From positions 138,136,001-138,200,000 of the forward strand of contig CM097882.1 of assembly GCA_044892505.1 (NCBI GenBank): 64,000 nt of DNA, in the 5' to 3' direction. Shown here one piece after another: positions 20,379 to 57,267 of the stretch. Numbering within the stretch: position 1 is the first letter of the stretch; each line of letters starts with the position of its first letter. A program made the position numbers and the translations under genes. Source of the stretch: Schmidtea nova (taxonomy: Eukaryota). The notes beneath the pieces were generated by a model that worked only from the letters and a program-made list of their open reading frames with translations, did not search any database and was not told where the DNA came from.

Positions 20379-20396
20379 TGGGGGCTCAGCCGGGAT
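20379..20396 (+). promoter_or_regulatory. Primer-binding site, tRNA-Pro type
   Basis: TGGGGGCTCAGCCGGGAT matches the canonical tRNA-Pro complement TGGGGGCTCGTCCGGGAT at 16/18 positions, 6 nt after the LTR-terminal CA. Confidence 0.85.
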
Positions 20397-22130: not shown

Positions 22131-22148
22131 GATATCCGGATATATAGT

Positions 22149-22359: not shown

Positions 22360-22909
22360 GTGATCGTCGACGATAATGAGAATAGTGCGCACCAGGAATT
22401 GAGAAATGCGAGTAAAGCTGATTATGCGACCTAAAATAATGCATGCAAGTAGAATCGAGAAATAGGAGCTGACCGGAAAGACCGGCAGAATTAATAATTA
22501 GAGGCTAGCAGAGAGAAAGATAAAGAGATAATAAAATAATAATCGAGTCAAATGACTCAGGGAATTAGAGCGTTCGAACGACAAATAAATTGGGAGACCG
22601 CGGGAAAAATAATTGATGTATTTTAATAACCGATAGATAATTGTTATGACTAAATAGATAATTGTGACTAGTATATAGATAATTTAAATAGACTTAAATA
22701 AAGGGGAATCTGGGAATGGGGAAAAATAATAGAAACCCAGTAATGAGAAGTCCCGTAAAAAGGGAATAAAAGCGCAACGATAACAATAGAGTATCGTTGA
22801 AGTGACATTTGTATTTTAGATAAATCAATCAAACCAAACCAAGCAACCAAGGAAGAAAAGAATCGGAACACGATAAGACAGGAAAATTGAGTATACAAAA
22901 GTAATCCCG

Positions 22910-28162: not shown

Positions 28163-28240
28163 ATAGAACCGTACATCATCAGTAAAGGAGGATGGGAAAC
28201 ATTCACAAAAACGAACCAAAAGAAAACCCAAGCCAAAAAT

Positions 28241-31200
28241 ATGAAAAGGAAATTCGAAGAGATATTGGGAGAATTGGAAAAGGAAAAGTCGGGAACAGGA
28301 AACGGGAAATCATCACTAAACTTGAGTTCTATCATTATGATGATGTTAATATGGATGATTAGTACTGACGGAGCAACAGCATTTGAAGTATTCGATTGTG
28401 ATCAAATGGCATTAGGTGAGAAATATTCACTACGAGGGACAGAACAATGTAAGGACGCAACCCCAACGGAGCTAAAAACATTAAAAAAGAGACAATTATA
28501 CCACGTATATCAGGAAGCTGAACTGATAAGAACAATGGTCAGAGAATGCAAAGTTTATAAAACCAGATTTGCTTTTTATTGTGGGCACCGCCATTATTCA
28601 GCAATCGTGATGCCAGGAACGGAAAGAGAATCGGTAATGCTGCAAGGAGAAGACTGTGAAAAATTATTTAAACATGGGGAAGTAGAGACTAGAGATAGAG
28701 TAAAGATAAGAGGAAAAACGGGAGTGATATTGCAACAAACATATTATGTAGCAGGAGCTATTACGGGAGGAGAAGGGTACTGCCAAGGAGCAACATATCC
28801 AATATTCGGAGTAGCAGCAACAAACCTAGTGGTAATAGATACGTATACAGTGGAACTAAAAACGTACGAGGCATTCTTCGATCCAACGACGGGAGAAATG
28901 AAAACTCTACCTATGTGCAAAATCGAGTCAAACACTTGTCAGACTGGTATGTCAACCCTAACCTACCAGATACGAGGAAAGGAATGTCAACTACAACTGT
29001 TAAAGGAAGCAGAATTCGATGAGATACAAGGGAAAACCTTCCAGGAGGAAGAAGAAGACGAGGCAGCAAGAGGAAAAATACTTCAAGACACAGTACGAGG
29101 AGAGAAAAAGATTGAAACACGAACACAAGAAAAGCAAATCAAAATGAGAAATACACCAACGGTACTAATTACCTCAGATGCAGATATCGGAATGAGGTTT
29201 GTAAAAGGAAAAACAGCCTTGAAATGCGGAGTAGCCATGTTGGAAACCAACTACCCCGGCATTTTCGTATCGAAACAAGAAGTACCTAGTGCGAAACGCA
29301 AAGTGCACACGAACGATGTTAAATTACACCTGTACATGAACAATAAAATGGATTTTCTATTCCATAGAGGACAAGCGTCACTACAAAAAGTGTATTACGA
29401 TTTAATTAACAACGATTGCATATTAAATAGGGAAATATTAAAGACAAAATTAGCAGTTGCAATCACAAACCCGGATTGTGCAATGCCATTATTACCATTG
29501 AGAGAAGGTCATTTTGGAAGGGTAGTCGGAGAAGTCATGTATGTATACATATGTAAAAAGACAAATGCGAAGGTAGCGACAATGACAAAATTACAACCAG
29601 GGCAGTGTACTAACGAACTAGAAATCGAATACAAAGGGAAGGTAAGATATGTGCAACCAGTGACAAGAATCATAAATCCAGTAAGCTTCGAACCAAATCC
29701 TTTCAATTGCAGCAACGCATATGGACCACTATACCAAAAACCAGACGGAAATTGGGTTATGTTTCCGTCAAGAACAGAGGTACCAGCACCAAGGGAATTT
29801 GAATTGATGCAACTATCAAAAGGACGAAAATTTAAAGACGTAGATGTAAGTAATATGGGATTCTATAGCGCAAAAGACTTAGAGGCAGCGAGGCAAAACA
29901 TACTATTTCCAGCAAGAAGGGAAGCGGTGCTATCCAGTATTGTAACAATAACAGGAGGAACAAATTACCAAGGTGGACCAAATTACGAATTATTATTGTC
30001 ACCAGCCCACTTTAAGAAGGCAACGGAAAACATGATGAAAGCGATGTGGGGAAGATTTTTAATATTTGGACAAATGATGGCAGGAATACTTGGTGTTATA
30101 CTAATTATACAAATAATACGGGTAATAATAACGCAAATGTTAGCCTGTTTTGACATCTATAAAAGAGAAAAGAAAGTAAATTGGAAATTGGTGGTAGGAT
30201 TCTTACCATTTTTGGCTAAAACAATGGTATTACACGGTCATTCAAAAGATATTCACCGAATAAAGAGACTCCTAAAAATACTGGCAAAAATGAAAGGAAC
30301 CGATGAAGAGGTGGGACGAAAATTTAAAAAGATAATGAATAACGAGCAAGCAAGACAACAACTAAAGAAAGAGAGAAAAGGACTATGGGAAAGAATGAAA
30401 GGGTACAGAACCCAAGACGATTCCAGTGACGACGATGATGATGATAACGAAGGAGGTCAAGTATTTAAAAATCAAGTACCACAGTATGTCGAAAAGAATC
30501 CAGCGGAAATGTGGAAATGTTACGCACCCCCACCAACCATGTACCAAGAACCAACACCAGGGATGAGACAAAATACAATGCAAATGATGCCGATGACAAA
30601 CATATATCCTATGATACCAGAAGACTATAGAACGAGACGGTGCAGAAGCGTAGATCCGCAAGGAGACTCACATACAATTGCAGTAATGTCATCAAACACC
30701 GGTCCAGTATTAACTACAACAATCGAAATTAACGGAAGGGAAATTGAAGCGATGATTGATACAGGAGCAAATATCTCAGCAATAGATATAAAATGGATAC
30801 CACAAGAACAAAGACGGGATATTGAGAGAACCAACGTTCACGTAATAGCATGCAGTAAAGAAGTAGTAGAAGTTGCCGGAAGATGGTGGGTAAAGATAAA
30901 ACATCAAAACACAGAAATCGAAACGTACGTAGCAGTAATACCAGCACTGAGCGTACCATGCATTATAGGCACAGATTTAATGCCAGCATTATTTAAAGAA
31001 ATAGTTATTGACCTCGGAACAATGAGATTAAAGGATAGGACAGGACAGATATGCGCAATAGAAGCAAAAGTAACAAGTTCGAAACAAATAATTGTACCAG
31101 CACGGAGAGAGAAAATATGTTTCGTAAAAATAGATCCTACAATAGAAGGTGATATGATCTTTGAACCCAGTAAAAGATTTGAAAAGAGAAAGTCGTTGCC

Positions 31201-34200
31201 AATGGCAAGGGGATTAGTGAGTGCGAATGACAACGGAGAAATCCCAATAAATGTAGTAAATTTCGATGAAGAGGATAAAATAATTTATGAAAACGAAAGA
31301 CTAGGTAAACTAACTCCAATGATAGATATCGAAATACCAATAAAAGAAGGAGTAAAAGAGGAGGAACCCACTTGGAACATTGATAGCCAACTATTAAATG
31401 AGGACCAAAAAAAACAGCTAGAAAGATTACTGATAGAATATAAAGACATATTCGCAGCATCCGATTTAGATCTAGGGACATGCGACGTCACACTACATAC
31501 GATTCCACTTACAGACGAAACGCCGATTGCGTTAAGACCATACAAGTTAGCTGAAGCGCAAAAATCAGTAGCCGAAGCAGAAGTACAGAAAATGCTAGAC
31601 GCAGAAGTAATTGAACCAAGCTGCTCACCGTGGCAATTCCCAGTTGTAATGGTGAAAAAGAAAGACGGAACACAACGATTTTGTATTGATTATCGGAGAT
31701 TAAATGCGGTAACAAAACGGGATACATACCCATTACCAGACATCAACGAGATGTTATTGACATTACAAGGAGCGGCATACTTTACATCATTAGATTTGAA
31801 AAGCGGATACTGGCAAATTAAAATGAAGGAAGAAGACAAAGAGAAAACTGCTTTCACGATCGGAAGAGACTTGTACCAATTTAGGAAAATGCCATTCGGA
31901 CTAACCAATGCGCCAGCATCATTTCAAAGATGTATGAATTTCGTTACCCACGGCATAAAACAATGCATGGTTTACATTGACGACCTACTGATCTACTCAA
32001 GCACATTTGAACAACACATCCAAGATATCAGAGATGTATTTGTTAGATTGAGACAATGGAAACTCAAGCTCAAACCATCGAAATGCGATTGGGCAAAAGA
32101 GAAAGTGACATTCTTAGGACATATTGTGTCCGCAAAAGGAAAGGAACCAGATCCCAGAAACATTGATAAAGTAAAAGAATGTCCAGTACCAAAGACGATA
32201 ACGCAGATCCAAGAATTTCTCGGATTATGCGGTTACTATAGAAAATTCATAAAGGATTACGCAGGAATTGCAAAACCAATCCAGGAGCTAGTAAAGAAAG
32301 ACGTATCGTTCATATGGGGAAGCGAACAACAAACAGCCTTCGAAACATTACGAGATAAGTTAATAACTGCACCAATATTGGTTCACCCGGATTTCAAGAA
32401 GCCATTTTTACTCGCAACCGACGCAAGTGGATATGCAGCAGGAGCAGTGTTAGGACAATATGATGACGAGGGAAAAGAGCGGGTAATCGGATATTATAGC
32501 AGAACATTCAAGAAACACGAGAAGAATTATTCAGTAACGGAAAGAGAAGCATTGGCAATAATATTAGCAATAAAACACTTTAAATATCTATTATGGGGAC
32601 ACGTTATATGCATAACCACGGATCATCAACCACTGGTATGGCTAGGACAACATAAGGAAACATCCAGCAGGTTGATGAGATGGGCGATGCAATTACAAGA
32701 ATATTCACCAGATATAAAATTCAAATCAGGAAAAGCGAATGCCAACGCAGATTGCATGTCAAGATTAACGTTTCCAGAATTAACAGACCCAGAAGTGCAA
32801 AGAATATGCATAATGATAGCAGAGGATTTGGATTTCAGCGAGTTAAAGAAAGATCAGCAAGAGGATAAAGAACTAAGACCCATCATAGAATTCCTAAGCT
32901 CACGGAATATGGATGTATTCAAAGACAATGCGGAGTTAAAAGAACACATGAGGAAATACCAACATCGATACACAATAGAAAAAGGATGGTTATTAATACA
33001 GGATGGAGAAAAACGATTAATGTGTCTGCCAAGTAATAGACGAAAAGAGATAATAACTCAATACCATGACGGAAAGTTGGGAGGACACATGTCCGATAAG
33101 AAAACATTAGATCGCATGAGACAAAAATATTATTGGCCAACAATGGACGAGGACGTAAAGGAATGGATAAAGAACTGTTTAACTTGTGCCACAAGAAAGG
33201 ATAGTGGGAAGAAATGGAAAAATCCCTTAAAACCCATGCCAATACCAGCGGAACCAATGACTACCATTGCGATGGATGTAATAGGACCATTGCCAGAAAG
33301 TTTAAACTGGAATCAATATATATTGGTAATAACGGATTATTTGACGAAATTCCCTGAAGCATTTGCGATGCCGGATCAAAAAGCAAAGACCGTAGCAAGA
33401 ATTTTAGTAGAGGAAATATGTTGTCGATACGGAACCCCGAAACAAATACTAACAGATCAAGGAACAAATTTTATGAGCGAAATATTAGATGAAGTAACAA
33501 ATTACTTCAGAATAGCCAAATTACGAACGTCACCATATCATCCGCAAACTAATGGACAAACGGAAAGATTTAACGGCACATTGATTCGAATGTTATCCAA
33601 TTATGTAAGCAAACACCAAACAGATTGGGATGAGTACATAAAGCTATGTCTAATGGCATACCGAATGTCGATACACGCAGCAACAAAATTGAGTCCATTT
33701 CAATTAATGTATGGAAGGGAATGCAATATGCCAATAGATCTTGAATATCAACCACCTTTGTCTCAATATATGGAGGAAGATGATTACGTCACCAAATTCA
33801 AAGAACGAATGCAAGAGATATGGAAGACAGCAGAACTAAACATAAAGTTTTACCAAGAAAGTTACAAGGACCTACACGATCAAAAGAAAAATGTTAAAAC
33901 AAATGATCTTAAACCCGGAGATTGGGTAATGATAGAAACCCCAGAAATAATACCAGGAACCGTTAAAAAACTACAAAGACCAGGAAAAGGCCCTTACGAA
34001 GTTATATACAAAAAGGAAAACAATGTGAAGGTAAAACTTGTTAATCGACCATTGATACGACCAATATACGTTAATACATGCAGATGTAAAAAAGTACCAA
34101 AGACAATAACCACAGCGCCAGAAGAACGAATAATAACCAGATCCCAGACAGCCAGAATGAATATGCTCAGAGCAACCAATGAAAGTACCGAAGCAGAAAA

Positions 34201-37200
34201 CAATCAACAAGAAAAAAGAAACAAGGAAATTGTACTAAAAGCCAGGGAAATAATGGGAAAATGGCATGTCAGAGACGATATATTAAGAGATATACAATTG
34301 ATAATTAGTGATTACGCAAGGGGACTACCAACAAAACCAGTCATTTCAGAACTATTGGAGAAAATTCCAGAAATACTTTCACTACAAGACATAGGAGGAC
34401 AACCAGCATTACATAACGCCATAAAATGGGGAGAAGTAGAGAGAGTAAAAGAATTTCTAAAAATCGCTAAGGAAACAAACCAACACCTTGGTTTTGGGAA
34501 TAGCGAACAAGAAACACCATTAATGGTAGCAGCCATCTACAAATCGGATAAAGCAATAATAGACCTTTTGATAAATGCCGATTTCAACTGGACGGAACGC
34601 GATAGAGAAAACAAAACAGTCTTGAATCACGCAATATGGAGCTCAAATCAGATAATGCTCAAACAAATAATCGAGAAGGCCACTTGGGAAATAGACGAAC
34701 TGATCAAAGGTGATATAATCAAGGAGGCAATAAAAATCGGTAACTGCAAAACAATACGCAAGCTAATAAAGTGGAAAAGATCCGAAAATGATACATGGGT
34801 ATTAAATATAAACGAGGTATACAGTGAAGGACAAAACGCGTTATTACAATTCCTATTAAAATTCGTCTGTGATCAGAAAACACTGTTAACGCTATTAGAT
34901 AGAGGAAATATCATAATGTCCAAAAACAAAGAGGAGTGTAAATTCAAAAGTGAAAAAGAAGCATTATTCAGGAATATTAGGGAATGGTGTACAAAATCGC
35001 TAACCAAGACGATAACTTACAAAGATATATCCAATTTTCAAGACAAATACAAAACGGTGGAGGAGGAGTATGACAAACTAATAGACATATTAAACCACCC
35101 CGAAAGATGCAAACAATTCCTATGTCGAAAGGAAAGAGAAAGCAAAAGGAAATTTACACCACTTTTCAGCGCAGAGGTACCTTATCAAGAAAGGTTAGAT
35201 GCGATACAGGACAAAGCAAAAAAACTATTACCAGAATTCGAAAATTCTAAACATACACTGGAGATACTCGGAGCAATTGTGGAAAAGATACACGCATATG
35301 CGGAAGGAACCTACAATGAAAACGATATGATGCTCATAAAAAGAGAAATGCCAGTGACTTTCTTATTAACAAAGAATGGAGTATTGCCAATACATAGAGC
35401 CTTACGAGCAGGAAAAGATAGGAGGGTAGTCGAAATTGCACGGTTGATGCAAGATTGCGGAAGTGACATGAACATGAAAGATAAAAAGGGAGATACCCTC
35501 ATGATATTCGCAGCAAGAGCGAACACAAAAACCCGAGTGTTACAGGAACTGTACGAAGCAGGTGCAGGACTCATGGGAAGAACGAACAAAGACAGCTCAA
35601 TACTAGACGTAGCGTTGTTAACGCACAATTGGGAGGTAATAAACTTTATAAAAACAATCACAAATCAGGAGGAAATAGAATACCTTACAAGGATAGTTAA
35701 AAAAGCTAGCGTACATTCCATGATGCATAACGCTGAACTAACCGAAGCAATACTCAATTGGATGAACCCAAACACCAATGAACCAGCATTCAGGATCAAC
35801 GAGTTCATGGAACAAGGCCAAAATTTGTATATAAAGTGTGCATTAATAATAAACAAATGGCCAAAGATAATAGACATCTTCATGAGAAGAAAAGATTTGC
35901 GATTCACAAACAACCCAAAGGAAACAGAACGTACGGACAAATGGAAAGAACTAATGAAAACGTACCTTAATAATTGGATAAAAGCCAAGAAAGAGATTCT
36001 AGATTGTAAATTAACCGATAAGGAAATACCTAAGCAGGCAGTAACACAAGAATATGAAGCAAGTATACTCACAACCATAACGTATGAAAAAATGATAGAA
36101 GCAATTAATGTCGAGGACGACATTTTCAACGACCAAAGGGGAGGCGACAATACAGGAAACGACGACGATAGTACTCGAGAAAATCCAGAGGATCATGAGT
36201 TATCAGATGAAGAGGACAGTGAAGAGAAAGGAAGGGACACAGAGAAAAATGATAAGAAAAATGAATTTGGGAAACAAAGAAACAACAACTATAAAAATAA
36301 AAACGAAGCAAAAAGAACAAGCTACAAACAAACAATAAATCCATTCTTTAAACCAGAACTATTATTACTAACGGTAATCATGACCTTAATTAGTCCCACT
36401 CAAGGAATGATATGTGAAGAAAGAACGACAATACAAATTGGAAACGCAAAAGGAATCGAACGAGTATGTTGGTCAAAAAAGGACAAAATATCGGGACAAA
36501 ATAGTCCAATGGATTGCAGGATCTCAGAATACGAACAAGAAATCATAGAGATCGATGACCTAGAGCTAGATACTTGGTACAGAATGTGCACCGTTCGGAA
36601 ACCAAAGGATCCGAGATCACATAAGACAATTGCATGTGCAAACTACCTAACACCCAAAATAACCATAACAGTACAGCAGACATCCAAAGGAGACTACGCC
36701 GTAGGAAAGTGTGGAAAAACAGAGACCCAAGGAACAAAAAACAAAAAACCCCAGACAATAGATAGACGAACAACGCCAACTATACGAATTACCATAGACA
36801 GGCCCGAAGCAAGAGTAACCACAAATGAAACCAAAAGAGTGACCTACCAAACAGAATTACTATGTTTAGCACTCATATTAACAATGTTAAAACGGTTAGA
36901 AGAAGGGATAGACATTGACACAATGGCAGTAACAGAGATGAACGACACCCAAAACACCAACCCAAAGTGTTGGGCCAGAAGCAACGAAGAAATTGGCGTA
37001 AGCGAAATAAAGACGAGTCGGAAAAGGAAAACAAATAAAGTAACCAAGATATCAGAAGTAAAAGCAGACAGGACGTATGAACTATGTTTACTAGAAAAAG
37101 AAAGACACAAGAAAGGAACGACAATTTGTAAAACATTTCAACCTGGGGAAACAATAAAGTTCATAAGACGAGGAAGAAAAAATATACGCACCAAACGGAG

Positions 37201-38299
37201 AACAACTATAATGTTAGAGTTAACCGGGATAGAACCGGACGTCAAAGGCGTATGCTGGAAGAAGCAGGAAAAGAAAACAAACCAGAATACACCGCCGCAA
37301 TGTCGAACAAACAGAGGAACAACCACAATACAGATAGAAGGGTTAGAAAGTAATCAAACGTACGAAATATGCCTGATCAGGAAGAGCGACAAAATAACAG
37401 TAAATGAACTGGAATGCAAAATATATAAAACACCCAGCAGAACAAGAATTGGAAAGACAACGCGAAAAAGCAGAAGACAACGGAACAAAGGAAAAGCGAG
37501 GTATACCACTACTTTTGAACCTAATGGACAACAGAAAAACCAAGAAATACAAATAAGAACCGAAAAGAATACTACAGCAACTCTTATACTATGGAGAATA
37601 GACAATAAAACGTTAGAAATATGTTGGGCAGTAGTTCAGGAACAAAAAGAAAGACAGCCACGATCCTGCGAAAACGTAAAAGGAAAAGAAGAAATGAGTA
37701 TCAAAAATCTGAAATTTAATAGAGAATACGAGATATGTGCGGTAGAAAAGACGGACATATTGGGAAATCAGCAGGAAAGATGCGAAACGTACTACACACC
37801 GGTAAACTCAACGTCCAAAGGGAAAGTGAGAAAACTCGAATTTAAAGAATTAAGTCAGACAACGAAACAAATGGACGCAGAACAAGTAGTAATAGACCCT
37901 TACGCAAGATGGACGCCGGAAGAAGTAATTAAAGAAGTTAAAAGAAAACAACAAGAACGAGAACAACTACTAAATAAACTAAAGGGACAATACGGACCAA
38001 TGATTAACCAGAGTGAAATTACGAAGATGGACGTAAACAAACAAGTTAGAGAACTAATTGGTCTAGGAATACTAGCAGCAACTATTCCAGTAATAACAGT
38101 ATTATTAATAATATGGATATATGATGTATTCAACAAGAAACCAATAACACATTGGCCAGATATAAAAATTATGAACTACAGAATAGAATTACCGGAAGAA
38201 GTACAGAAAGAATTTCAAAGGAGGACGAAAGGCAAGGAATTTTGGAGACAAATAGAAGATGAGGAGCGATACGAAGGAAAGACAGTGATGGTGATATAG
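28241..38299 (+). CDS. pol: 3352-aa polyprotein: Env-like glycoprotein, protease, RT, RNase H, integrase, ankyrin repeats, FN3-like type I membrane protein
   Basis: MIDTGAN (30758), YIDD (31973), LLATDASG, HDGKLGGH...CLTC, MDVIGPLP/TDQGT/NGQTERFN, GKGPY, ankyrin motifs, and several hydrophobic segments. Confidence 0.95.
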   Translation: MKRKFEEILGELEKEKSGTGNGKSSLNLSSIIMMMLIWMISTDGATAFEVFDCDQMALGEKYSLRGTEQCKDATPTELKTLKKRQLYHVYQEAELIRTMVRECKVYKTRFAFYCGHRHYSAIVMPGTERESVMLQGEDCEKLFKHGEVETRDRVKIRGKTGVILQQTYYVAGAITGGEGYCQGATYPIFGVAATNLVVIDTYTVELKTYEAFFDPTTGEMKTLPMCKIESNTCQTGMSTLTYQIRGKECQLQLLKEAEFDEIQGKTFQEEEEDEAARGKILQDTVRGEKKIETRTQEKQIKMRNTPTVLITSDADIGMRFVKGKTALKCGVAMLETNYPGIFVSKQEVPSAKRKVHTNDVKLHLYMNNKMDFLFHRGQASLQKVYYDLINNDCILNREILKTKLAVAITNPDCAMPLLPLREGHFGRVVGEVMYVYICKKTNAKVATMTKLQPGQCTNELEIEYKGKVRYVQPVTRIINPVSFEPNPFNCSNAYGPLYQKPDGNWVMFPSRTEVPAPREFELMQLSKGRKFKDVDVSNMGFYSAKDLEAARQNILFPARREAVLSSIVTITGGTNYQGGPNYELLLSPAHFKKATENMMKAMWGRFLIFGQMMAGILGVILIIQIIRVIITQMLACFDIYKREKKVNWKLVVGFLPFLAKTMVLHGHSKDIHRIKRLLKILAKMKGTDEEVGRKFKKIMNNEQARQQLKKERKGLWERMKGYRTQDDSSDDDDDDNEGGQVFKNQVPQYVEKNPAEMWKCYAPPPTMYQEPTPGMRQNTMQMMPMTNIYPMIPEDYRTRRCRSVDPQGDSHTIAVMSSNTGPVLTTTIEINGREIEAMIDTGANISAIDIKWIPQEQRRDIERTNVHVIACSKEVVEVAGRWWVKIKHQNTEIETYVAVIPALSVPCIIGTDLMPALFKEIVIDLGTMRLKDRTGQICAIEAKVTSSKQIIVPARREKICFVKIDPTIEGDMIFEPSKRFEKRKSLPMARGLVSANDNGEIPINVVNFDEEDKIIYENERLGKLTPMIDIEIPIKEGVKEEEPTWNIDSQLLNEDQKKQLERLLIEYKDIFAASDLDLGTCDVTLHTIPLTDETPIALRPYKLAEAQKSVAEAEVQKMLDAEVIEPSCSPWQFPVVMVKKKDGTQRFCIDYRRLNAVTKRDTYPLPDINEMLLTLQGAAYFTSLDLKSGYWQIKMKEEDKEKTAFTIGRDLYQFRKMPFGLTNAPASFQRCMNFVTHGIKQCMVYIDDLLIYSSTFEQHIQDIRDVFVRLRQWKLKLKPSKCDWAKEKVTFLGHIVSAKGKEPDPRNIDKVKECPVPKTITQIQEFLGLCGYYRKFIKDYAGIAKPIQELVKKDVSFIWGSEQQTAFETLRDKLITAPILVHPDFKKPFLLATDASGYAAGAVLGQYDDEGKERVIGYYSRTFKKHEKNYSVTEREALAIILAIKHFKYLLWGHVICITTDHQPLVWLGQHKETSSRLMRWAMQLQEYSPDIKFKSGKANANADCMSRLTFPELTDPEVQRICIMIAEDLDFSELKKDQQEDKELRPIIEFLSSRNMDVFKDNAELKEHMRKYQHRYTIEKGWLLIQDGEKRLMCLPSNRRKEIITQYHDGKLGGHMSDKKTLDRMRQKYYWPTMDEDVKEWIKNCLTCATRKDSGKKWKNPLKPMPIPAEPMTTIAMDVIGPLPESLNWNQYILVITDYLTKFPEAFAMPDQKAKTVARILVEEICCRYGTPKQILTDQGTNFMSEILDEVTNYFRIAKLRTSPYHPQTNGQTERFNGTLIRMLSNYVSKHQTDWDEYIKLCLMAYRMSIHAATKLSPFQLMYGRECNMPIDLEYQPPLSQYMEEDDYVTKFKERMQEIWKTAELNIKFYQESYKDLHDQKKNVKTNDLKPGDWVMIETPEIIPGTVKKLQRPGKGPYEVIYKKENNVKVKLVNRPLIRPIYVNTCRCKKVPKTITTAPEERIITRSQTARMNMLRATNESTEAENNQQEKRNKEIVLKAREIMGKWHVRDDILRDIQLIISDYARGLPTKPVISELLEKIPEILSLQDIGGQPALHNAIKWGEVERVKEFLKIAKETNQHLGFGNSEQETPLMVAAIYKSDKAIIDLLINADFNWTERDRENKTVLNHAIWSSNQIMLKQIIEKATWEIDELIKGDIIKEAIKIGNCKTIRKLIKWKRSENDTWVLNINEVYSEGQNALLQFLLKFVCDQKTLLTLLDRGNIIMSKNKEECKFKSEKEALFRNIREWCTKSLTKTITYKDISNFQDKYKTVEEEYDKLIDILNHPERCKQFLCRKERESKRKFTPLFSAEVPYQERLDAIQDKAKKLLPEFENSKHTLEILGAIVEKIHAYAEGTYNENDMMLIKREMPVTFLLTKNGVLPIHRALRAGKDRRVVEIARLMQDCGSDMNMKDKKGDTLMIFAARANTKTRVLQELYEAGAGLMGRTNKDSSILDVALLTHNWEVINFIKTITNQEEIEYLTRIVKKASVHSMMHNAELTEAILNWMNPNTNEPAFRINEFMEQGQNLYIKCALIINKWPKIIDIFMRRKDLRFTNNPKETERTDKWKELMKTYLNNWIKAKKEILDCKLTDKEIPKQAVTQEYEASILTTITYEKMIEAINVEDDIFNDQRGGDNTGNDDDSTRENPEDHELSDEEDSEEKGRDTEKNDKKNEFGKQRNNNYKNKNEAKRTSYKQTINPFFKPELLLLTVIMTLISPTQGMICEERTTIQIGNAKGIERVCWSKKDKISGQNSPMDCRISEYEQEIIEIDDLELDTWYRMCTVRKPKDPRSHKTIACANYLTPKITITVQQTSKGDYAVGKCGKTETQGTKNKKPQTIDRRTTPTIRITIDRPEARVTTNETKRVTYQTELLCLALILTMLKRLEEGIDIDTMAVTEMNDTQNTNPKCWARSNEEIGVSEIKTSRKRKTNKVTKISEVKADRTYELCLLEKERHKKGTTICKTFQPGETIKFIRRGRKNIRTKRRTTIMLELTGIEPDVKGVCWKKQEKKTNQNTPPQCRTNRGTTTIQIEGLESNQTYEICLIRKSDKITVNELECKIYKTPSRTRIGKTTRKSRRQRNKGKARYTTTFEPNGQQKNQEIQIRTEKNTTATLILWRIDNKTLEICWAVVQEQKERQPRSCENVKGKEEMSIKNLKFNREYEICAVEKTDILGNQQERCETYYTPVNSTSKGKVRKLEFKELSQTTKQMDAEQVVIDPYARWTPEEVIKEVKRKQQEREQLLNKLKGQYGPMINQSEITKMDVNKQVRELIGLGILAATIPVITVLLIIWIYDVFNKKPITHWPDIKIMNYRIELPEEVQKEFQRRTKGKEFWRQIEDEERYEGKTVMVI
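28331..30231 (+). other. Env-like domain: chuvirus/Monjiviricetes-type fusion glycoprotein with signal-like and transmembrane segments
   Basis: IIMMMLIWMI...ATA|FEVFDC; YSL...C; ECKV...R...YCG..HYS; AG...G.G.C.G..Y; CG...ETNYP; LYMNNKMDF; C...REILKTKL; GEVMYVYIC; CTNEL; ILFPARREAVL; TM FLIFGQMMAGILGVILIIQII. Motif and Cys order recognised by eye. Confidence 0.75.
34390..35660 (+). other. Ankyrin-repeat region downstream of integrase
   Basis: GQPALHNAIKWGE, ETPLMVAAIY, KTVLNHAIW, VLPIHRALRAG, GDTLMIFAARAN, SSILDVALLTHN. Confidence 0.8.
36353..38130 (+). other. C-terminal membrane protein: signal-like segment, four Cys-containing FN3-like repeats, TM anchor
   Basis: PELLLLTVIMTLISPTQG; four repeats of the form xCW...(C)...I..L....Y.(I/L/M)C...C; TM LIGLGILAATIPVITVLLIIWIY. 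Confidence 0.65.
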
Positions 38300-38424: not shown

Positions 38425-38781
38425 ATGAACGAACAGGAAGAAATAGCAGAAACTACTATGGCTATGCGATGGAAAGCCCAGTGTGACATGTTAATACGAA
38501 CAATCAACTCACTACAAAATCAGTTAATTGAGAAACAGAATTTGTTATCCGAAAGTTATAATAATAGTTTTGAACAACTCCACAGAATCGAGGAGCAACA
38601 GAGATTGATAACGCAACTTACCAGAGAGAATCAAGTGATGAGCGACATAAATCAGAGACAAGCAATAGAGATAGACCGTTTAACAATGGGGGAGATAGAA
38701 GAAGCAGAGGATGGATGGACAAATTGGGCAATAAACAGGTCGGAAAATGACCCAGAACCAGATTCAACAAACGAGCCGTAG
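38425..38781 (+). CDS. Small coiled-coil accessory protein (118 aa)
   Basis: ATG-initiated with heptad pattern; TTTAG acceptor-like site 3 nt before the ATG. Confidence 0.6.
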   Translation: MNEQEEIAETTMAMRWKAQCDMLIRTINSLQNQLIEKQNLLSESYNNSFEQLHRIEEQQRLITQLTRENQVMSDINQRQAIEIDRLTMGEIEEAEDGWTNWAINRSENDPEPDSTNEP

Positions 38782-38872
38782 ATAAATAAAGCGAAAAATT
38801 GTAAATATGTAAAAACAAAAACAAGAAAAATCAAAAAATAGATAACAAATCAAGTGTATATATCATTGTAGA

Positions 38873-40256
38873 ATGAATACAGAAGGAAAAGCCGAAGAGC
38901 GGATAATCGAAATTTTGAGAGCCGAGAACAGGAAATGGAGTCAGAGACTCACTTGTGTAAATTGTAAAAACATAATATTGAAACCAAGACAAACCCTATG
39001 CGGATGCAGAGTATGTACCAAATGCATACACGAGTTAAGTATGAAAAGACCACCAGAATGTCCAGAATGCAAAGAAGGACAAATAAAATTCGAAGAAACC
39101 GGACCAGATAGAGCAACTCAGAGAGAAATCATGAACACGAAAACCGAATGTATAAATCAACCATGTATATGGCAAGGACAAATACGCGATCTCGAGAACC
39201 ATCTGGAGAACTGCGAAGAGAAGAGAACTGAATGTAACAAATGCCAACAAAAAATAACTATAAAGAATAAAGAGCAGCACAAAGATGAATGTAAAGAAGA
39301 GGAAAGTCTATGCGAATATTGTGGAACTCGAGAAACGAGGAGAAAGATCGAAGAAGAACACCTGAATGTAAAAGAGGAGAAAGTATGTAGACAATATGTA
39401 GGAATATGTTCAAACGAATGCGAGATAACGGTAGAAGTAAAATTACAAGAACATTGGAAAGTGTGCACGGAGAAACCAAGGGAATGTCCTTATAACAAAC
39501 AGGGATGTATGGAGAAAAGAACGCAAAAAAACCATGAAACAACATCTGGAGGAAGCATTGCTAAAGCATGCGGAAATGACAAACGAAGCAACAAAAGAAA
39601 CCGAACAAACAATCAAAAAATTAGAAAGAGAAATAGAGTCACACAAGATAATGGTAAACCTACTGTTGGAAACCAGAGAGCAATTCGAACTAACACGAGA
39701 AAAGATGGAGGAAAAGATAAAAGCTATCGAAGAATTGGCTAAAGGAATGAAAATCCAGTACAACAAACTCACCCAGGATACCGAGGAAAAGTTGCCAATC
39801 GCACCCTATGTGTGGAAAGTGACAGATTTTAGAGACAAATTAACAGAGGCCAGAAATATGACGAAAACAGCAGTAATAAGCCCACCATTTTATTTATGGA
39901 GAAACGGAGCTAAAGTGAGATTGAAGCTATACCCAAATGGAGACGGAAGAGGACGAGGAACACATGTGTCAATATTTTTCTCGCTATGTAAAAGAGAATA
40001 CGACGACCTAGTAGAATGGCCCTTGAAAGTAGGAGTCATTATAAGAATCAGAAGTGTAGCAAAACCAGTGGAAAAATTCTTTGAGACAGAGAAACATGCG
40101 AGTACGAGCGAGAAACCAACCACAGAATGTGGATTAGCAGCGGGAGAACCGATGTTTATAACGAAAGAAAGCTTATGGGAACGATTATATGCAGACACCC
40201 TATACATAGAAATGGAAAGGAATGAGAAAGCGGATAGAAAAGGATGGTTGACGTAA
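38873..40256 (+). CDS. TRAF: Intronless TRAF-family protein (RING, TRAF Zn fingers, coiled coil, MATH) with one frameshift in an A7 run
   Basis: CVNC...CGCRVCTKC...CPEC RING; ECINQPCIWQG...LENHLENC Zn fingers; YVWKVTDF...SPPFY...KLYPNGDGRGRGTHVSIFF...YDDLVEWP MATH. Removing one A from 39525-39531 joins the two ORFs as EKRTQKTMKQHLEE. Confidence 0.9.
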
Positions 40257-40372: not shown

Positions 40373-41434
40373 ATGGGAAATATCGAAGTATGCTTACAGG
40401 AAATTACGATGCATCAAGCAGAAGCGATTAGCGATCATCTAGAACAGATCGAAATATGGGTCAATGCATATTATAGAAAGCAAGAGGAGATAGAGAGACA
40501 AGCCGAATTATTAAAAGAAGCGGAAAGATCAAGTCAAAGAAGTCGAGAAAAAATAGAAGAAGTATACAAAATGCTAAAACAACAAAAGGAATATTACCAG
40601 GGAATGATGAAAGAGCGACGAGAGGAAAGAGACAGACAGCAGATGGAAGCTGAACACAAGATGTATTCGATTACAGAACAAGCAAGATACTGGAAGAAAG
40701 AAGCGAAAGAATCTTACGAAAAAGCTAGAGAAATAATAGAAAGGACAGCTTATAGTGATGACTGGAAATTATATAAAGAGATCGACGAATTAAAAGACGA
40801 ATTAGAGAAAAAAATCAACCAGGAAGTGTTAAATAAAAGATGGAATACAAAAAGACAGCAATTTATCCGCGAACAAGCAAAGAAAATTAAAGGACTAACC
40901 TATCAAGTTCAAAGAATGGGAGAAGAACTAGCTAATCAAGAACAACTGAAAACTATGCTCACCGGAATATGGAATCAGAAAGAAGAAGAGATGAAGAGAG
41001 ATATAAATGGTTATCAAGGAGTGATTACCCAGAAGAAAATAGAGCTAAAAAGAACCAGAGAAAGGTTAAAGGAAGAGAAACAAAGTTATGAGGAAAATTT
41101 AACGAATTTGATGAAAGAAAACGAAGAATTGAAACAGAAACGAGTAACAGTATCAGTAATACCCAAAGAAGCAAGTATAACGGCAGCCGTAACAAAAATG
41201 ATGAAGGAAGACGAACAAAAGACAAAAGTAATCGAATTAGAGAAGCAAATAGAAACATTAACAGAACAAGCAAATTACCTAGAATATTTGCTGGACGAGG
41301 AGATCCAGATATCTCACATGTATCGAGATGAAGTCGAAATGTGGAGGAGCAGGGTTGTTTGGATACCACTCCCCACGAACCAGGTAGAACCTCAGGACGA
41401 AGGTTTCTACGAACCAAACGAGACGATGGTGTAA
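40373..41434 (+). CDS. Long coiled-coil (SMC/myosin-tail-like composition) accessory protein (353 aa)
   Basis: E/K/Q/R-rich heptads; polypyrimidine tract plus TAG acceptor-like site 2 nt before the ATG. Confidence 0.7.
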   Translation: MGNIEVCLQEITMHQAEAISDHLEQIEIWVNAYYRKQEEIERQAELLKEAERSSQRSREKIEEVYKMLKQQKEYYQGMMKERREERDRQQMEAEHKMYSITEQARYWKKEAKESYEKAREIIERTAYSDDWKLYKEIDELKDELEKKINQEVLNKRWNTKRQQFIREQAKKIKGLTYQVQRMGEELANQEQLKTMLTGIWNQKEEEMKRDINGYQGVITQKKIELKRTRERLKEEKQSYEENLTNLMKENEELKQKRVTVSVIPKEASITAAVTKMMKEDEQKTKVIELEKQIETLTEQANYLEYLLDEEIQISHMYRDEVEMWRSRVVWIPLPTNQVEPQDEGFYEPNETMV

Positions 41435-41516
41435 ATAAAGCGGAAAATATATTTTTGTAAATAATTGTATGAAATGTAGTGTCAAATTGTATTGATCTAT
41501 CTGTAAAGAAAACAGT

Positions 41517-42089
41517 ATGAAAAAGCTCAGAATACCGATATTCCTATACCTAATAACAATCACCCTACAAAGAGAAGATCTTCAACTCACAGAGAAGGAG
41601 CTACGAGCCCTACCCGAGAAAACCTATCAAGAACTAGATAAACTAATCAGCGAAGCAACACAAGAAATCACCCAACTTCAACAGATAACATCAGACAACC
41701 CAAACGATGAAAAATTTCAACAGGTCCTATATGAACATCGAATCAAATTGAAAACAATCAGAAAAACCCTAATAGAAGGTCGAGAACCCATAAAAAGCTT
41801 AGCCCAAGCAGAGATAGAATATCAAGAAAAATGGATCATCGCAATTATAATAATCCTTGCACTCAGCGTGACCATTATCGCGATCACAATCCTCATAACA
41901 TCATACCGAGTGAAGATCCTAAAACAAAAACAAGTCATCCTGAATCGAACAACAATACAAGACATCAGAACCCAAAAGCGAATGAGAAAACACCTAAACC
42001 GAATCCAAAGCCACTATGAACTACGAACAATCAGCGAAAGAACCCCAATCCAATCCAATACCAATCATGAAATCAAAGAGCTTGTGTAA
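41517..42089 (+). CDS. Small membrane protein: N-terminal hydrophobic segment, coiled coil, TM, basic tail (190 aa)
   Basis: MKKLRIPIFLYLITITLQ; TM WIIAIIIILALSVTIIAITILI; CAG 1 nt before the ATG. Confidence 0.75.
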   Translation: MKKLRIPIFLYLITITLQREDLQLTEKELRALPEKTYQELDKLISEATQEITQLQQITSDNPNDEKFQQVLYEHRIKLKTIRKTLIEGREPIKSLAQAEIEYQEKWIIAIIIILALSVTIIAITILITSYRVKILKQKQVILNRTTIQDIRTQKRMRKHLNRIQSHYELRTISERTPIQSNTNHEIKELV

Positions 42090-43671
42090 AACTGATAAAT
42101 TACATTCACTTTATGTATGATCCACGTACAATTAACAATAATATGACTTTGTGCTTACGTATAAAATCTATCACCTTATGTGATTCTATGTGTACATGTA
42201 AATTGACATTTATCTGCTTAATTTTTATGTATGATGATATAGGTGTAAATGTATAATTAATTGCTGGACGCAATTTTAGGGGTCCCCGAGTGATGTTGGG
42301 CCAGCCAAATAGAGGGAACAGTGAAATAAAAGTAGATTAATTAAAACAAAAAAGAGAAAAATAAGGTAAAAAGGGGAATATTTATTTATTAAAAGAAAGG
42401 AATAATATAGTAAAAATATAGATAAACTAAGTACAAGCTATAAATAAAAATAAATGAATTGCTAGATATTAACGGGCCCAGGAGACATCTAAAAACAAAT
42501 AAAATACAAATAATAATAATTAAAACCAAATAAAAGTACTTGTTATTGAATAATTGTTTTTGAAACCCGGACCTCCAAGGAAGAATACAATCTAAAAAAT
42601 AAAAATTAATTAGAATCAAAAACAATAATTAAAAACCACCATGAAGCTGGCCGAACCTGATTGGTCGGTCTAGACACGACTGATCAGTATAAATACTGAT
42701 CAGATTTTTCATAAAAAGAGAATAGAGACGTTGTTAGACTGTGTAAAAACTTAGACTTTGTTAGAATATAGATTTTAGACTTGTGACTTTGTTTGAGACA
42801 AAAATTTAGACTTGTGTTCAGACTAAAAATTTACATTAGATTGCACATTGCCCCGACGACGATCACCGTTTAGACCGATTTTGATCAATAAATTTTCAGA
42901 ATTCAATTGAGGTATTCTTGGTATATTTACGTTTATTGTTTGATATCGTTGTATTCATATGTCATTATCATATTATAATTTATTAGTTATCTCATTATGA
43001 TTTATGTTATATTTAAACTATTTAAACTATCATATTAATCTTGCGCCGTTGGGAGCTTTAGGTTCCCAAGGTGTCCGTCCGTGGCGTGGTGCTCGAGGGC
43101 TCCACACACGGTAAAGTAATAAATAACAAAACATAATTTTATTAGTGATGGTTGAGATTTGCACATGGGACACCCAACAAATCCGGGGAATTATTTTCTG
43201 ATCGTTTTGGCTACGGAGGGGACGATAATTTTTTGATAAAGCTTAAAGATATGAAAGAATTTGTTAACCGGGAGGAGGCACAATTTTTCACCCTCACCAC
43301 AGCGCAGCTGTTTAATAAACGTCTAATAAACCTTAGGAAAATTATGTCGACCGCATTTGATACAAAAGAGCGTTTTCGAATAAGCTAGGGATACATGACG
43401 TGAGAGAGCTTCCGTTTTGAGGTATCAATATTTTGAAAATCCAAGCAGACAAATCACCAATTCTTCGACTATAAAATTGATCGTAAACAGATAAATCTAA
43501 GTAGATACGAGAGTAATGTATACCGTAACAAGCAACAGTTTTTTCTTGATTTCAGCTAAGGTCTAAGGGGAAGGCAAATAATAAGGGTATCACGATGAGA
43601 GATAACATTTACTATGATTAATTATTGATGTAAATTGTAACTATTATCAAATTCAGCATCGTTTTGGAATC

Positions 43672-44139
43672 ATGACTAAGCATAGATACACTATCAAAAA
43701 ACGACAAGAACGAGCCCGAGTTAGCCCATTAAAGCCGGCTCCTTTCGAGATTTTACAGCAAATCCATCAAAAAATGTGGGCATGGCGCCGAGAGCTTGAA
43801 ACCGCCTGTCCATTTACATTATGGGACCATCCACGGCACCACGTATGGTACCGGGGATGCGCTAGTTGGCCAATTATTCCAGACGAGGAATGCGAATCAT
43901 GGCACGCCGCCTGGTTCGTCCTGATGTTGGATAAGGGAGGATTCCCGAAATGTGTGATATATTGGGGGTTCATTCCAGCCTCTACCTTCAAGGAATTGGG
44001 GTTCAAGTTCAATACCGCAATACGACCCCTTCGAGAAGCTGAGAGGATCCGTTTTCAGCAGGCCTCGTCCAATATCAACACAAATTTGCAAATCAGATCG
44101 ATATTTTCATATCGAGGAAAAATGACCGAAGATGAATAG
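43672..44139 (+). CDS. Second copy of LTR-encoded 155-aa protein
   Basis: Identical to 18440..18907. Confidence 0.6.
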   Translation: MTKHRYTIKKRQERARVSPLKPAPFEILQQIHQKMWAWRRELETACPFTLWDHPRHHVWYRGCASWPIIPDEECESWHAAWFVLMLDKGGFPKCVIYWGFIPASTFKELGFKFNTAIRPLREAERIRFQQASSNINTNLQIRSIFSYRGKMTEDE

Positions 44140-44460
44140 TTGAATCAATGGCCACATGTTTTTTTTAATTTAATAAATGTTTTAAAAAAGGTCTGAAGTG
44201 TCTCATTTTGTTAATAGTGTTGTCATGTAGATTTAGTATTCTAGTTGTTATAGTCATTAGGAAATTCATTTAATAATCTCAAACTAGTTCAATAAATCCT
44301 TTGAGCCTTCAATAAATAGATAGTTAATTAATTTTGCAACAAACTTAATAATTAAAAACATTAGTATGCATCTCGTTTAATGATAGTAAATAATAGACTA
44401 AATAAAATAACATTGTTGACAGGTCCTCCAGCGAATTTATCGTTATAATATTCAGACAAC

Positions 44461-45045
44461 ATGCCGACTTCAGAAAATTCCAAGAAAATCATGGGACAAA
44501 TCCAAGAGAGGAAGTTGAGGGACCAGCAGCGTCAGATCAAGCGACTCACGGTCGCCAATGATGAATTGAGAGCGAAGTGGTTCTCACCCGAACAAATGAA
44601 GGACCAGTCGAAAAAACTTGAGCGAATGCAGGAAGCACTGGCCACAACCAAATTGGAACTAGATGCCGTCCAGCGAGAACTCCGAAATTGCCTAAACGCA
44701 GTAACAAGAAGTTACATCGACTCCGAATTACGAGCGCTAATCCGGCCGATCACGGCTCAGCGCTGGATACAATGCACTCACCAAGATGTCGCTTGCGGGA
44801 CGGAAGAGGGAATCATCATGGCCCCCTCTCTTACAACGGAAGATTTGCCTATTTTTCTCAGTGATCCCCCGAGAACAATAGCGCCAGCACCGGTCATAAA
44901 CCAACAGCTTCGAAAACACCGAATGGGATCGCGACAGCGTCGTCGTCGCCGAGAATTTGCAAAGCGCCTGGACGAACAAATCCACCACTTGAACTCCTTA
45001 ACCGAAGCGGAGTTGATTCAGGAGATTAGTCTGGAATTCGCTTAG
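44461..45045 (+). CDS. Second copy of LTR-encoded 194-aa Arg-rich coiled-coil protein
   Basis: Identical to 19229..19813. Confidence 0.65.
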   Translation: MPTSENSKKIMGQIQERKLRDQQRQIKRLTVANDELRAKWFSPEQMKDQSKKLERMQEALATTKLELDAVQRELRNCLNAVTRSYIDSELRALIRPITAQRWIQCTHQDVACGTEEGIIMAPSLTTEDLPIFLSDPPRTIAPAPVINQQLRKHRMGSRQRRRRREFAKRLDEQIHHLNSLTEAELIQEISLEFA

Positions 45046-45684
45046 GAAAACATCCATGTAAAATAACAACCTGTTTTTAGTATTTTAATAAAAGTATTTC
45101 TGTGTAAATTTTGTCTCTCATCGGGTGATGTTACTAAATGAAATAAAATAACAAAAATGAAATCATCGAAATAAAAAAATATCGCCCCGAAATTTTCTCA
45201 AACCGACCGTTTATACGCAGGGACTGATTAATTACATTGTAGATCAATTAAGGAAAGTCGTTAAGAAAGGCGTGTGATAGAGCATAAGGATATGTAGTAC
45301 AAAATTTAGTAGAGCGAACATCCATAGAATGAAAATGCGTAAGACCTTCTATCGGCAGCAAGGACCCGAGGGAAGATAAATGGGGAGTAGTTTTGGCAAC
45401 AAAGCTCACCTGCCCATCATTTTTCCCCCACCGTATGCAGTACCAACTTGACTAGTAGGGAATAGTCAAGGGCATACGCGTGTAGTAGTCATGTTATGTA
45501 TGGTTATGGGCGTGGAATCCCTAGTATACATATTCATCAATAGTCGTTCAATTAATGATTAACTATTTATTTGAATTACTTAAAACCCACCCATAACCCC
45601 AGCATTATTTATCTGTAATGGTTTATCAATTTGCGTTTGATATGCACACAAAGGATACACAGCAGTGTAAGGATAAAGTCCGAT

Positions 45685-50620: not shown

Positions 50621-51904
50621 CGTAGTGCGGTCAAAATGTTTCTGGCCTCCCCAGAAAAAAGTAAAAGCAAGAAACCACAACTATATTTTTATCAACACCA
50701 AAACCATTTCTTCTCGAACCAATTACCTCCGACATCGACACACTTCTGCCAACGACCAGGGAGGGCTTCGAATGCCCCATGGTAAAATGAGGGTGGAAGC
50801 TGGTCAAAAATCCGATTTACAGCCTCCTCTAAATCGCCTGCATCCATGAAATACTGTCCCCGCAGTTGCTTCTTCAATTCCGTAAATAGGCAGTAATCTG
50901 AGGGAGCCAAATCAGGGCTGTATGGAGGGTGGCTAATGATCTTGAAGCCACAGTCATTGAGTTTTTCTTGGGTAATGCGGCTGGTGTGAACTGGCGCATT
51001 GTCATGTTGAAACCAGTGAGACAGACCATATGGTTTTTGGCACTTTCTACGAACTTGCTCAACGAGATTACCGTAATATTCTCCGCTGATTGTCCATCCC
51101 TTCTCAAGAAAGTCGGTGAGGATCACTCCCTTATGACTCCAAAACACAGTCAACATGAGGTCCCTTCTGTGCAACATTCCGGAACGAGACTTCCAAACTT
51201 TTCCTTCTTCCGGCTTTTTCCATTCCATAGACTCCGGCTTTGATTCAGGCTGATGTAGGGGCAACGGTGTCTCATCAACAGTGAGGATGTTTTGGATAAA
51301 TCTTTCTCCATACTTGCGGTAAATGGCGAGGTTCATGAGACACGCATTCTTTTGGTTATTGCACATCTCAGTTGTCAAAAAGCGAGACACCAGCTTGTTG
51401 AAGTTAAGGTCTTTCAATAATTGCACTACGGTGCCATGTGATATTTGTAGGGATTCTTCCAGCTGCCTGGTAGTTATACAGCGATCTTCCAGTACCATTT
51501 TCTCCAATTTTTCCTTCACATCTTCATTTCTCGAAGTCGTTGGTCGACCCTCTCGTTCCTCATCTGACACTTTGCCGACCCCTTTTGAATTCAGCAATAT
51601 AAAACTTGATGGTAGACTGAGACAGACACTTTTCGCCATAGGCTCGATTCAGATTTGCTATGATTTCCTGGTTGGTTTGGCCGAGAAGAACACAAAAGCG
51701 AATAGCACAGCGATACTCAATTTTTTCCAGCGAATGCACTTGCAACGACATTTCTATCTGCAACAGATAAAGTAAATGGATTAGGTCAATAAGATTTTCA
51801 ACATGAAATTGTCAATAAATTTCCAATAAAATAAACTTATTTCCATTAAAAAATCAATTTGTTAAGTAGGGTAGGCCGGAAACTTTTTTTATTTTGACCG
51901 CACG
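50621..51904 (-). mobile_element. Mariner (DD34D) DNA transposon, 1284 bp, frameshifted transposase
   Basis: TA TSDs; TIRs CGT(A)GTGCGGTCAAAA..GTT(C/T)(C/T)GGCC; VDET / HDNAP-34aa-PSD and HPPYSPDLAPSDY; HTH N-terminus in another frame (51560-51763). Confidence 0.9.
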
Positions 51905-52810: not shown

Positions 52811-54124
52811 TATAACTGATGTTGAGGTTCCCAGAATCTCAACTTGGTATCTTATATAAATAAATAAGATAACACTGGTTAAAAGATTTTATTCAAATAC
52901 AACAAATACAAATTACCTAAAAAATTATTACAGATTCACAATGTTGTTCCTTTAATGTGTAAATATATATATATATATATATATATTAGTATCTTGTTAG
53001 GTAGAAATGTTATGTGAGGGAAATATGTAAGGGCCCAAAAGAGTCTCCCAAAGAAAAATTGAATTGTGGGGACAATTGGGGTGCGTGATATATATATATA
53101 TATTTTGCGTGATAGTTCTACAATTAAATATAACAAATTATAAAAAAAACAATAGAATGAACAGAACTATTAATCAAGTTATCAAATTTTATTAAAAGTT
53201 AAACAATAAAGAAAAAAACCACGAACTATTACTTTGATTTTTTTTTTGAGTGTGGGATAATACTGTTATTGGATAATAATTGTTTATGGCGGCGAAGTGC
53301 TGTCCGAATGAGGATTGTGGACTAGAGATCGTTTCTTTTATTTCTATTCTTTGTAAAGATCTTTTGGATTTGTTAGATTTTCAAGCGGGATAATACTGTT
53401 TATGTATATTAATGGTTTATGAATAATAATGGTTTCTGTAGGCGAAATGCAGTCCAAATGAGGATGGTGGACTAGAAAGTATTTCTTTTGTTACTATTCT
53501 TCGTAAAGATCTTTGGTATTTGTTCGATTTTCAAGCGGGATAATACTGTTTATGGATAACAATGGTTTATTTTCCTTGGTTTTGCAGATTAGGGAATTAT
53601 TAGGAATTAATCTTAGGACTTAATTTTAGTAGCTTCTTTTTCGATTGATTCTTTTTCTTCCTTGGTAATAATTTTTTTATTGATTTTTTTTAATTTCAAT
53701 TTTTAATTTTTAATTCTATTTTAATTATAAGGTTGATAATAATAATAATTATAATAATGAGATTAAAATCAATTGTCCAATACCCGACCAAATGGGGGGG
53801 GGCCTCCGCACTCCATACGCTACCCAAAATCGCAACAATTACTCTAACAATAAAAATACCCATAAAAAAAACATAATTACAATAAACCTTTGAGTACAAC
53901 ACACAACTTCCCCCTTTAAAACCGGAGGTTAACAAACATACCGAAAAATTTACAGATTAACAATGTTGACGACTTATTTTTGTTTTGTTTTGTTTTTTTT
54001 TTTTTTTTGTTTTATTTTGTTGTTTATAATGTTTTAACCGTAACATTTACATATTTACAAAAGACTAAAAACTGTACATTTAGCTATGTTGTGCCTGTGT
54101 TTGCTTGTGTATGTTTATGTATTT

Positions 54125-57259: not shown

Positions 57260-57267
57260 TGGTGACT

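Follow-up and report, generated by a model that had tools for sequence, protein, structure and literature searches.

A Burro-type retroelement of the planarian Schmidtea nova carries a full-length TRAF gene under purifying selection

Results

Structure of the element

The window analyzed here comprises 64,000 nucleotides of the Schmidtea nova genome (contig CM097882.1), and positions are given in its own numbering. An env-bearing Ty3/gypsy retroelement of Burro type occupies positions 17062 to 45604 (28.5 kb), and between its long terminal repeats (LTRs) lies a full-length, intronless TRAF accessory gene (38873 to 40256) that has a single frame break in this copy as assembled. The gene and all other parts of the element described below are on the plus strand. 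The 5' LTR (17062 to 20372; 3.3 kb, bounded by TG...CA) and the 3' LTR (42294 to 45604; 3.3 kb) each contain two ORFs of 155 and 194 amino acids (aa), found at 18440 to 18907 and 19229 to 19813 in the 5' LTR. The LTR of a second family, family B, likewise has two ORFs, one of which is detectably homologous to an LTR ORF of family A, the family of the element in the window. A primer-binding-site-like stretch, which we take to resemble tRNA-Pro, is present at 20379 to 20397, and the leader ahead of gag (21638 to 22377) holds three tandem-repeat arrays with periods of about 30, 40, and 45 nt. An Rfam search of positions 16000 to 46000 gave no matches.

The polyprotein (22877 to 38299) runs, by Pfam, from a zinc knuckle (gag) through a Monjiviricetes fusion protein (env), protease (PR), reverse transcriptase (RT), RNase H, and integrase (IN) to ankyrin repeats (Ank_2, E = 3e-13). 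A stop at the gag/env junction is private to this copy, a sense codon standing in its place in all 11 of the other copies covered (12 fetched). The repeats of the element show 3 differences across a 4.2-kb repeat, and 0.9 kb of the 3' interior (41395 to 42293) is duplicated ahead of the 5' LTR, at 16163 to 17061, which is not the case in either of the two other copies mapped. This copy of the element is young but defective. No target-site duplication is evident at it; a family-B copy has one of 4 bp.

Four ORFs follow the polyprotein as an accessory cassette, and the TRAF gene is the second of them. The first, immediately upstream, encodes 118 aa (38425 to 38781) with 52% identity to its family-B counterpart. 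The third (353 aa; 40373 to 41434) has no Pfam match and ends in a C-terminal tail, E-T-x-V, that is strongly conserved across families A and B and that we presume to resemble a class I PDZ-binding motif. The fourth (190 aa; 41517 to 42089) contains a hydrophobic, probably membrane-spanning segment; a PxQ-like motif in it, considered as a possible receptor mimic, was dropped because it is not kept in family B. On the other side of the polyprotein, a 153-aa ORF (20701 to 21162) ends in a C3HC4 RING. An earlier reading of this DNA, made from its letters alone (the sequence-only reading), had called this product an IAP-RING and had listed Ubl modules as well, which together with the ankyrin repeats and the TRAF were proposed to form a coherent kit for rewiring ubiquitin, innate-immune, or apoptosis signaling. 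What we found is a RING only: no BIR was matched in the element ORFs scanned with Pfam. The search for Ubl modules yielded one weak Pfam hint (E = 0.047) among the three segments tested, and BCL2-like, dUTPase-like, and Ubl motifs gave no Pfam matches at E <= 0.01, the published ones having come from HHpred. With a RING that lacks a BIR and a single weak Ubl match, the case for a kit whose parts would act together is weaker than proposed.

Elsewhere in the window, about 1-kb direct repeats (99% identical) at 619 to 6170 flank ORFs of the minus strand that encode HSP90 fragments, a DUF1759 domain, and a ubiquitin domain, an arrangement that looks like a small LTR element with host gene pieces. 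The minus strand also encodes the gag and pol of an ordinary gypsy element with LTRs of about 920 nt (98% identical; 52980 to 59457). There is, in addition, a Tc1/mariner-type transposase ORF (50692 to 51648) and a near-perfect palindrome with 193-nt arms (6739 to 7125).

The TRAF gene and its product

In the copy in the window, the ORF listing divides the TRAF coding sequence between two overlapping frames (38846 to 39742 and 39441 to 40256), which jointly encode the RING, zinc fingers, coiled coil, and MATH domain. The sole break lies in a run of A residues at 39525 to 39531, as the sequence-only reading had noted, and is private to this copy; the 29-mer that spans it occurs once in the genome. 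It may be a genuine mutation or an error of the assembly, the four sequencing runs compared being contigs in which copies of this multicopy family are collapsed. The reading had also placed the four kinds of domain in this order in a protein of about 460 aa, and both points are borne out by a natural open-frame copy at another locus of the genome (L004), whose product is 460 aa long and to which the residue numbers below refer.

The RING (38954 to 39070) is of the C4C4 type, with C-G-C where C3HC4 RINGs have C-G-H, a feature common to the TRAFs of triclad hosts. It is followed by five TRAF-type zinc fingers (39149 to 39569), with every ligand position common to family B, by a long helix or coiled coil (39558 to 39782; residues 229 to 303 in the structure model), and by a MATH (TRAF-C) domain (39807 to 40220) that is recognized by Pfam, by PDB sequence matches, and by overlay of the model. 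Against Pfam, the L004 protein scored above cutoff for MATH_2 (E = 1e-21) and TRAF-mep_MATH (E = 4e-19) and under cutoff for zf-TRAF (E = 8e-5), and its RING had no match at E <= 1. In a search of PDB sequences, residues 27 to 151 resembled the RING and zinc fingers of TRAF6 (5vo0; E = 6.5e-11), the N-terminal part matching those of TRAF6, TRAF5, and TRAF2 at E values from 6.5e-11 to 2e-8, and residues 311 to 446 matched the C-terminal domains of TRAF5, TRAF3, and TRAF2 at about 1e-22. The AlphaFold model has a mean pLDDT of 91.3 and a pTM of 0.49, and its MATH domain superposes on that of TRAF2 with an rmsd of 1.3 to 1.6 Å. The product thus shows the hallmarks of the TRAF family, with a coiled coil ahead of a C-terminal MATH/TRAF-C fold and, at the N terminus, a RING followed by TRAF zinc fingers in tandem. 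Judging by this fold, it may form trimers, bind receptor tails, and act as an E3 ligase. The stretch that aligns to the serine-rich receptor groove of TRAF2, TRAF3, and TRAF5 is, however, changed in the element TRAF, which makes binding of TNFR tails in the canonical manner doubtful.

Copies and families

One exact 30-mer detects at least 90 copies of family A. Among 70 family-A loci (the 30 best BLAST matches plus 40 further loci picked by word), the TRAF frame is open in 49, contains stops in 7, is frameshifted in 12, and is partial in 2; best BLAST matches favor intact copies, and the word-picked loci alone are open in 24 of 40 cases. Family B has the same cassette, with a TRAF that is 52% identical to that of family A, in at least 109 copies (exact word), and the frame is open in 27 of its 30 best matches. 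Family C has a MATH domain alone, inside a polyprotein frame of 4706 aa, in at least 221 copies (exact word); a full TRAF is absent from the one family-C copy read. Taken together, these exact-word counts (at least 90 + 109 + 221) amount to at least 420 element-borne MATH copies.

The TRAF gene also stays with its element. An integrase word of family A marks 63 loci, and 62 of these carry the TRAF region: a TRAF word or sequence match lies within 30 kb downstream in 56, a further 6 align across the gene, and the one remaining has a deletion that starts inside it. In one family-B copy (L067, 4722 to 6170), a deletion has produced an in-frame fusion between TRAF and the conserved tail of the ORF that follows. 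Editing of the ADAR type was considered for the copy in the window and rejected; this copy has 2 private substitutions, and A>G changes are not in excess among the singletons of family A.

Selection on the TRAF gene

Alleles were counted over 65 copies of family A, after 5 loci that were old or partial had been set aside. Singletons comprised 62 synonymous changes, 102 missense changes, and 11 stops, whereas alleles present in at least 3 copies comprised 48, 27, and 0, respectively (pN/pS, 0.13 to 0.14); given the mutation spectrum observed, neutrality predicts a ratio of nonsynonymous to synonymous changes of about 3.3. The shared alleles of family B (30 copies) gave 89 synonymous changes, 29 missense changes, and no stops (pN/pS, 0.07 to 0.08). 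Stops occur solely as singletons (11 of 175 singletons versus 0 of 134 shared alleles). A dN/dS check, one of those suggested by the sequence-only reading, gave values of 0.13, 0.16, 0.15, and 0.12 against four older-subfamily copies and 0.23 against a fifth. Codon-model omega was 0.235 for 25 of the 48 open A copies and 0.188 for 25 of the 27 open B copies, estimates that are lowered by the picking of open copies and raised by drift after insertion. All 28 zinc-ligand Cys/His positions are common to the A and B TRAFs, and variation affects 3 of 1540 ligand cells compared with 191 of 10615 cells at other residues.

The element TRAF is maintained by purifying selection while the element makes new copies. 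Constraint on shared alleles, with stops confined to singletons, indicates that the gene is selected on the lineages that transposed and decays after insertion. One could suppose instead that the TRAF is a neutral passenger, captured recently and with its decay still pending, and the break in the present copy and the 21 of 70 family-A loci that are disrupted or partial would fit such a history. Nevertheless, we regard it as extremely improbable, and indeed refuted, given a shared-allele pN/pS of 0.07 to 0.14, the presence of the gene in two families despite saturated synonymous sites between them, and the retention of 28 of 28 zinc ligands. The outcome that the sequence-only reading had set against its own proposal, namely, copies that are all disrupted and evolving neutrally, is likewise not what we observe, with 49 of 70 frames open and a shared-allele pN/pS of about 0.13.

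Relationship to host TRAFs

Among named relatives of the element TRAF, the best are TRAFs of two triclads, Dugesia japonica and Dendrocoelum lacteum. The A and B TRAFs form one clade (100/99 in a 39-row tree), and the element and triclad host TRAFs together form a clade at 100/100 in a 22-row tree; a TRAF phylogeny was among the checks called for by the sequence-only reading. The element sequences may be either nested in the host clade or sister to it (p-AU, 0.17; the element rows are compositionally biased). We infer that transfer was from host to element, because the clade takes in Dendrocoelum, which lies beyond the range of Burro quoted in PMC13465017. The C-G-C RING and an insert in the third zinc finger are also found in host paralogues and are therefore traits of the family. 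The sequence-only reading had described a complete, intronless, captured TRAF. Completeness and carriage by the element stand, but the absence of introns cannot be taken as evidence of capture here, since host TRAFs away from Burro elements were single open frames at all five loci checked (L068 and L071 to L074). The family-C MATH may stem either from a capture of its own or from that of families A and B: its best pairwise scores are with host proteins, yet the tree joins it to A plus B at 94/76.

A 452-aa TRAF from a JGI/IMG contig (P0035) branches as the sister of the element TRAFs, at 98/97 in the 39-row tree and at 83/70 in the 22-row tree, and it could be either the closest host paralogue or the Burro TRAF of another species. 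Metagenomes furnished relatives at 12 loci, the full-length ones being about 30% identical; none were found in viral contigs or in phages, and a word-based protein search returned only 12 distant TRAFs.

The sequence-only reading had further suggested that elements of this kind could inflate host TRAF counts. Our count of host loci was made by hand, from place and length, over the best 150 of 2419 candidate matches to PF21355, and these comprise about 73 non-element loci, 74 of family B, 2 of family C, and 1 unassigned. Within these best 150, roughly 63 of the non-element loci fall at C2:405-455 Mb, where a large tandem cluster of host TRAFs is seen (L041 to L060 and L163 to L167), some of its units being near identical and about 4 to 5 kb apart. 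Five cluster loci were read over 10 kb; four of them have RING-side matches apart from a MATH exon, and none has a Burro-like pol, one having a decayed gypsy at 26 to 36%; four cluster MATH domains form a separate clade (100/100). The TRAF expansion reported in PMC6109357 therefore has a real host basis here, in a tandem cluster with a clade of its own, while the 420 or more element MATH copies may inflate or swamp host counts made without masking.

Possible route of expression

A 91-nt spacer (38782 to 38872) separates the TRAF gene from the ORF before it; it contains TGTAHATA motifs and, one base 5' of the ATG, a TTGTAG that resembles a splice acceptor. Families A and B have the same 10-mer up to and including this ATG, in 64 of the 65 A copies covered and in 29 of 30 B copies. 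Cassette spacers of both families measure 73 to 125 nt; a YAG lies within 10 nt of the ATG in 8 of 8 of them versus 15% of shuffles, and TGTAHATA, which we take to be a Pumilio element, occurs 13 times versus a shuffled mean of 0.6 and a maximum of 5 in 500 shuffles, all of these being post hoc statistics on A and B spacers that are homologous to one another.

The element TRAF is likely spliced into an mRNA of its own through this predicted acceptor. Intergenic distances in flatworm operons peak near 100 bp (PMC8629364) and flatworm spliced leaders end in AUG (PMC12582326), so that either cis-splicing from the LTR leader or trans-splicing of a spliced leader may be responsible. A search of family A for spliced retrocopies with their junction at the TRAF acceptor gave no hits. 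The sole family-B candidate (L108) has lost the spacer but was rejected, as it shows no clean GT-AG junction, and five other junctions are also non-GT-AG. Burro1 is expressed upon loss of piwi (PMC8532177).

Discussion

In the current study, we describe a Burro-type element that has kept a TRAF, related to the TRAFs of triclad hosts, through purifying selection during its own copying. Since the gene is intact and constrained in most of the sister copies examined, it likely helps the element. A diffusible product that about 100 copies share would be expected to place each of them under weak selection only; the strength of the constraint suggests a small number of active copies in a given cell, whether because activation is rare or because the element spreads by means of env.

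The reading that we favor, with confidence only a little better than even, is that the gene supplies a TRAF-like adaptor in cells where the element is active and shifts host survival or innate signaling in the favor of the element. The protein would likely be a trimeric adaptor or a scaffold for ubiquitin ligation, and by way of putative partners it would tune survival or immune signaling. Such a role would have context on both sides: the B-IAP protein of Burro1 is reported to guard stem cells against apoptosis (Lee et al. 2026, as cited in PMC13465017), and Smed-TRAFs of the host are required for cell survival and homeostasis (PMC7586133 and PMC8807557).

A rather improbable alternative is that the protein acts on the particle of the element itself. 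Its MATH domain would bind, and its RING would ubiquitinate, Gag or other element proteins so as to serve assembly, trafficking, or release, and host signaling would be little affected. The location of the family-C MATH in the Gag-side polyprotein, the unlikeness of the groove residues to those of TRAF2, TRAF3, and TRAF5, and a cis action that would account both for purifying selection per lineage and for co-retention at 62 of 63 loci all speak for this. Comparison of families A and B speaks otherwise. Their identity is 96% in RT, 92% in RNase H, 90% in IN, 80% in env, and 77% in PR, with synonymous sites saturated, but it is 48 to 60% in the TRAF domains and 43% in the ankyrin repeats. The TRAF (52% overall) thus diverges like the ankyrin cargo and far more rapidly than the RT, RNase H, IN, and env regions, which suits a protein that faces the host, and it retains the complete architecture of a host TRAF. 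Even so, the spread of family C with MATH alone means that the RING and zinc fingers are dispensable for some Burros.

To about the same low degree, we can envisage that the gene is kept for the good of the animal, in stem-cell survival or regeneration, rather than for the spread of the element. The precedent of Burro1 B-IAP (Lee et al. 2026, via PMC13465017) and the many copies with an open frame are in keeping with such mutualism. It is the alleles shared between copies, and hence the lineages that transposed, that show constraint, however, while inserted copies gain stops, and dozens of redundant copies would leave host selection on any single one weak. An adaptor acting for the element on host signaling remains our preferred account. 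A bolder version of it, which we put forward as doubtful, is that Burro behaves as a planarian endogenous retrovirus with a spliced or operon-like cassette, whose complete and selected TRAF actively rewires innate or death signaling in the host. With hundreds of intact copies, it would then supply more TRAF genes than any other source in the genome and would aid neoblast survival alongside B-IAP.

TRAF-domain cargo in Burro, and the idea that it meddles with ubiquitin and apoptosis, are already published: section 7 of PMC6431247 lists MATH_TRAF_C, BIR, ankyrin, Ubi2/SUMO-like, and env domains for Burro and proposes interference with apoptosis and ubiquitination. PMC11410931, in the passages covered, mentions Burro without a TRAF. 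In the literature so covered we found no account of a full-length downstream TRAF under selection, although Grohme 2018 or Lee 2026 may contain one. What the present analysis adds is that a domain listed in passing becomes a testable gene, full length and separately initiated, with purifying selection measured in two families. The element TRAF is an obvious next target for RNAi after B-IAP. Element copies can also confound planarian MATH/TRAF counts, TRAF RNAi, and read mapping, while the host expansion exists independently of them.

We assign the element to the Burro type by its match to the published description. Burro/GYPSM1 of Schmidtea mediterranea and Dugesia tigrina is likewise about 30 kb in length, with long LTRs, env between gag and pol in one polyprotein, ankyrin repeats, and TRAF-C/MATH cargo (PMC6431247), and the element described here has 28.5 kb with 3.3-kb LTRs, env in frame before PR, ankyrin repeats, and the TRAF-C/MATH cargo. 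In the published elements, MATH_TRAF_C is part of the polyprotein in S. mediterranea, whereas in D. tigrina it belongs to an accessory ORF upstream (PMC6431247); in this genome, family C follows the published layout. Families A and B differ in having a full RING-zinc finger-coil-MATH gene downstream of pol, in a four-gene cassette, and no BIR was found in family A. The polyprotein in the window has no Pfam match to MATH, which marks it as a Burro-type family and not Burro1 itself, and no counterpart of the BIR-containing IAP of Burro1/GYPSM1 proper was matched in the ORFs scanned, the ORF at 20701 to 21162 having a RING only. B-IAP of Burro1 (Lee, Poulet, Allikka Parambil, and van Wolfswinkel, Dev Cell 2026, via PMC13465017) is also a host-derived regulator of cell death carried by a Burro; it combines a RING with a BIR and has functional support (PMC13465017), whereas the element TRAF is known here from its sequence. 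Host TRAFs of triclads (Dugesia japonica TRAF-2-like A and Dendrocoelum lacteum TRAF-2/4/5) share its domain order, C-G-C RING, third-finger insert, and clade but are only 26 to 33% identical to family A and differ in the groove residues. Further afield, the viral TRAF ORF111L of ISKNV (PMC3352826) is similar by description, being a TRAF-like protein of a selfish genome that acts on host death signaling; ISKNV, however, is a DNA iridovirus of fish, and ORF111L is reported to be proapoptotic, acting through TRADD and caspase 8.
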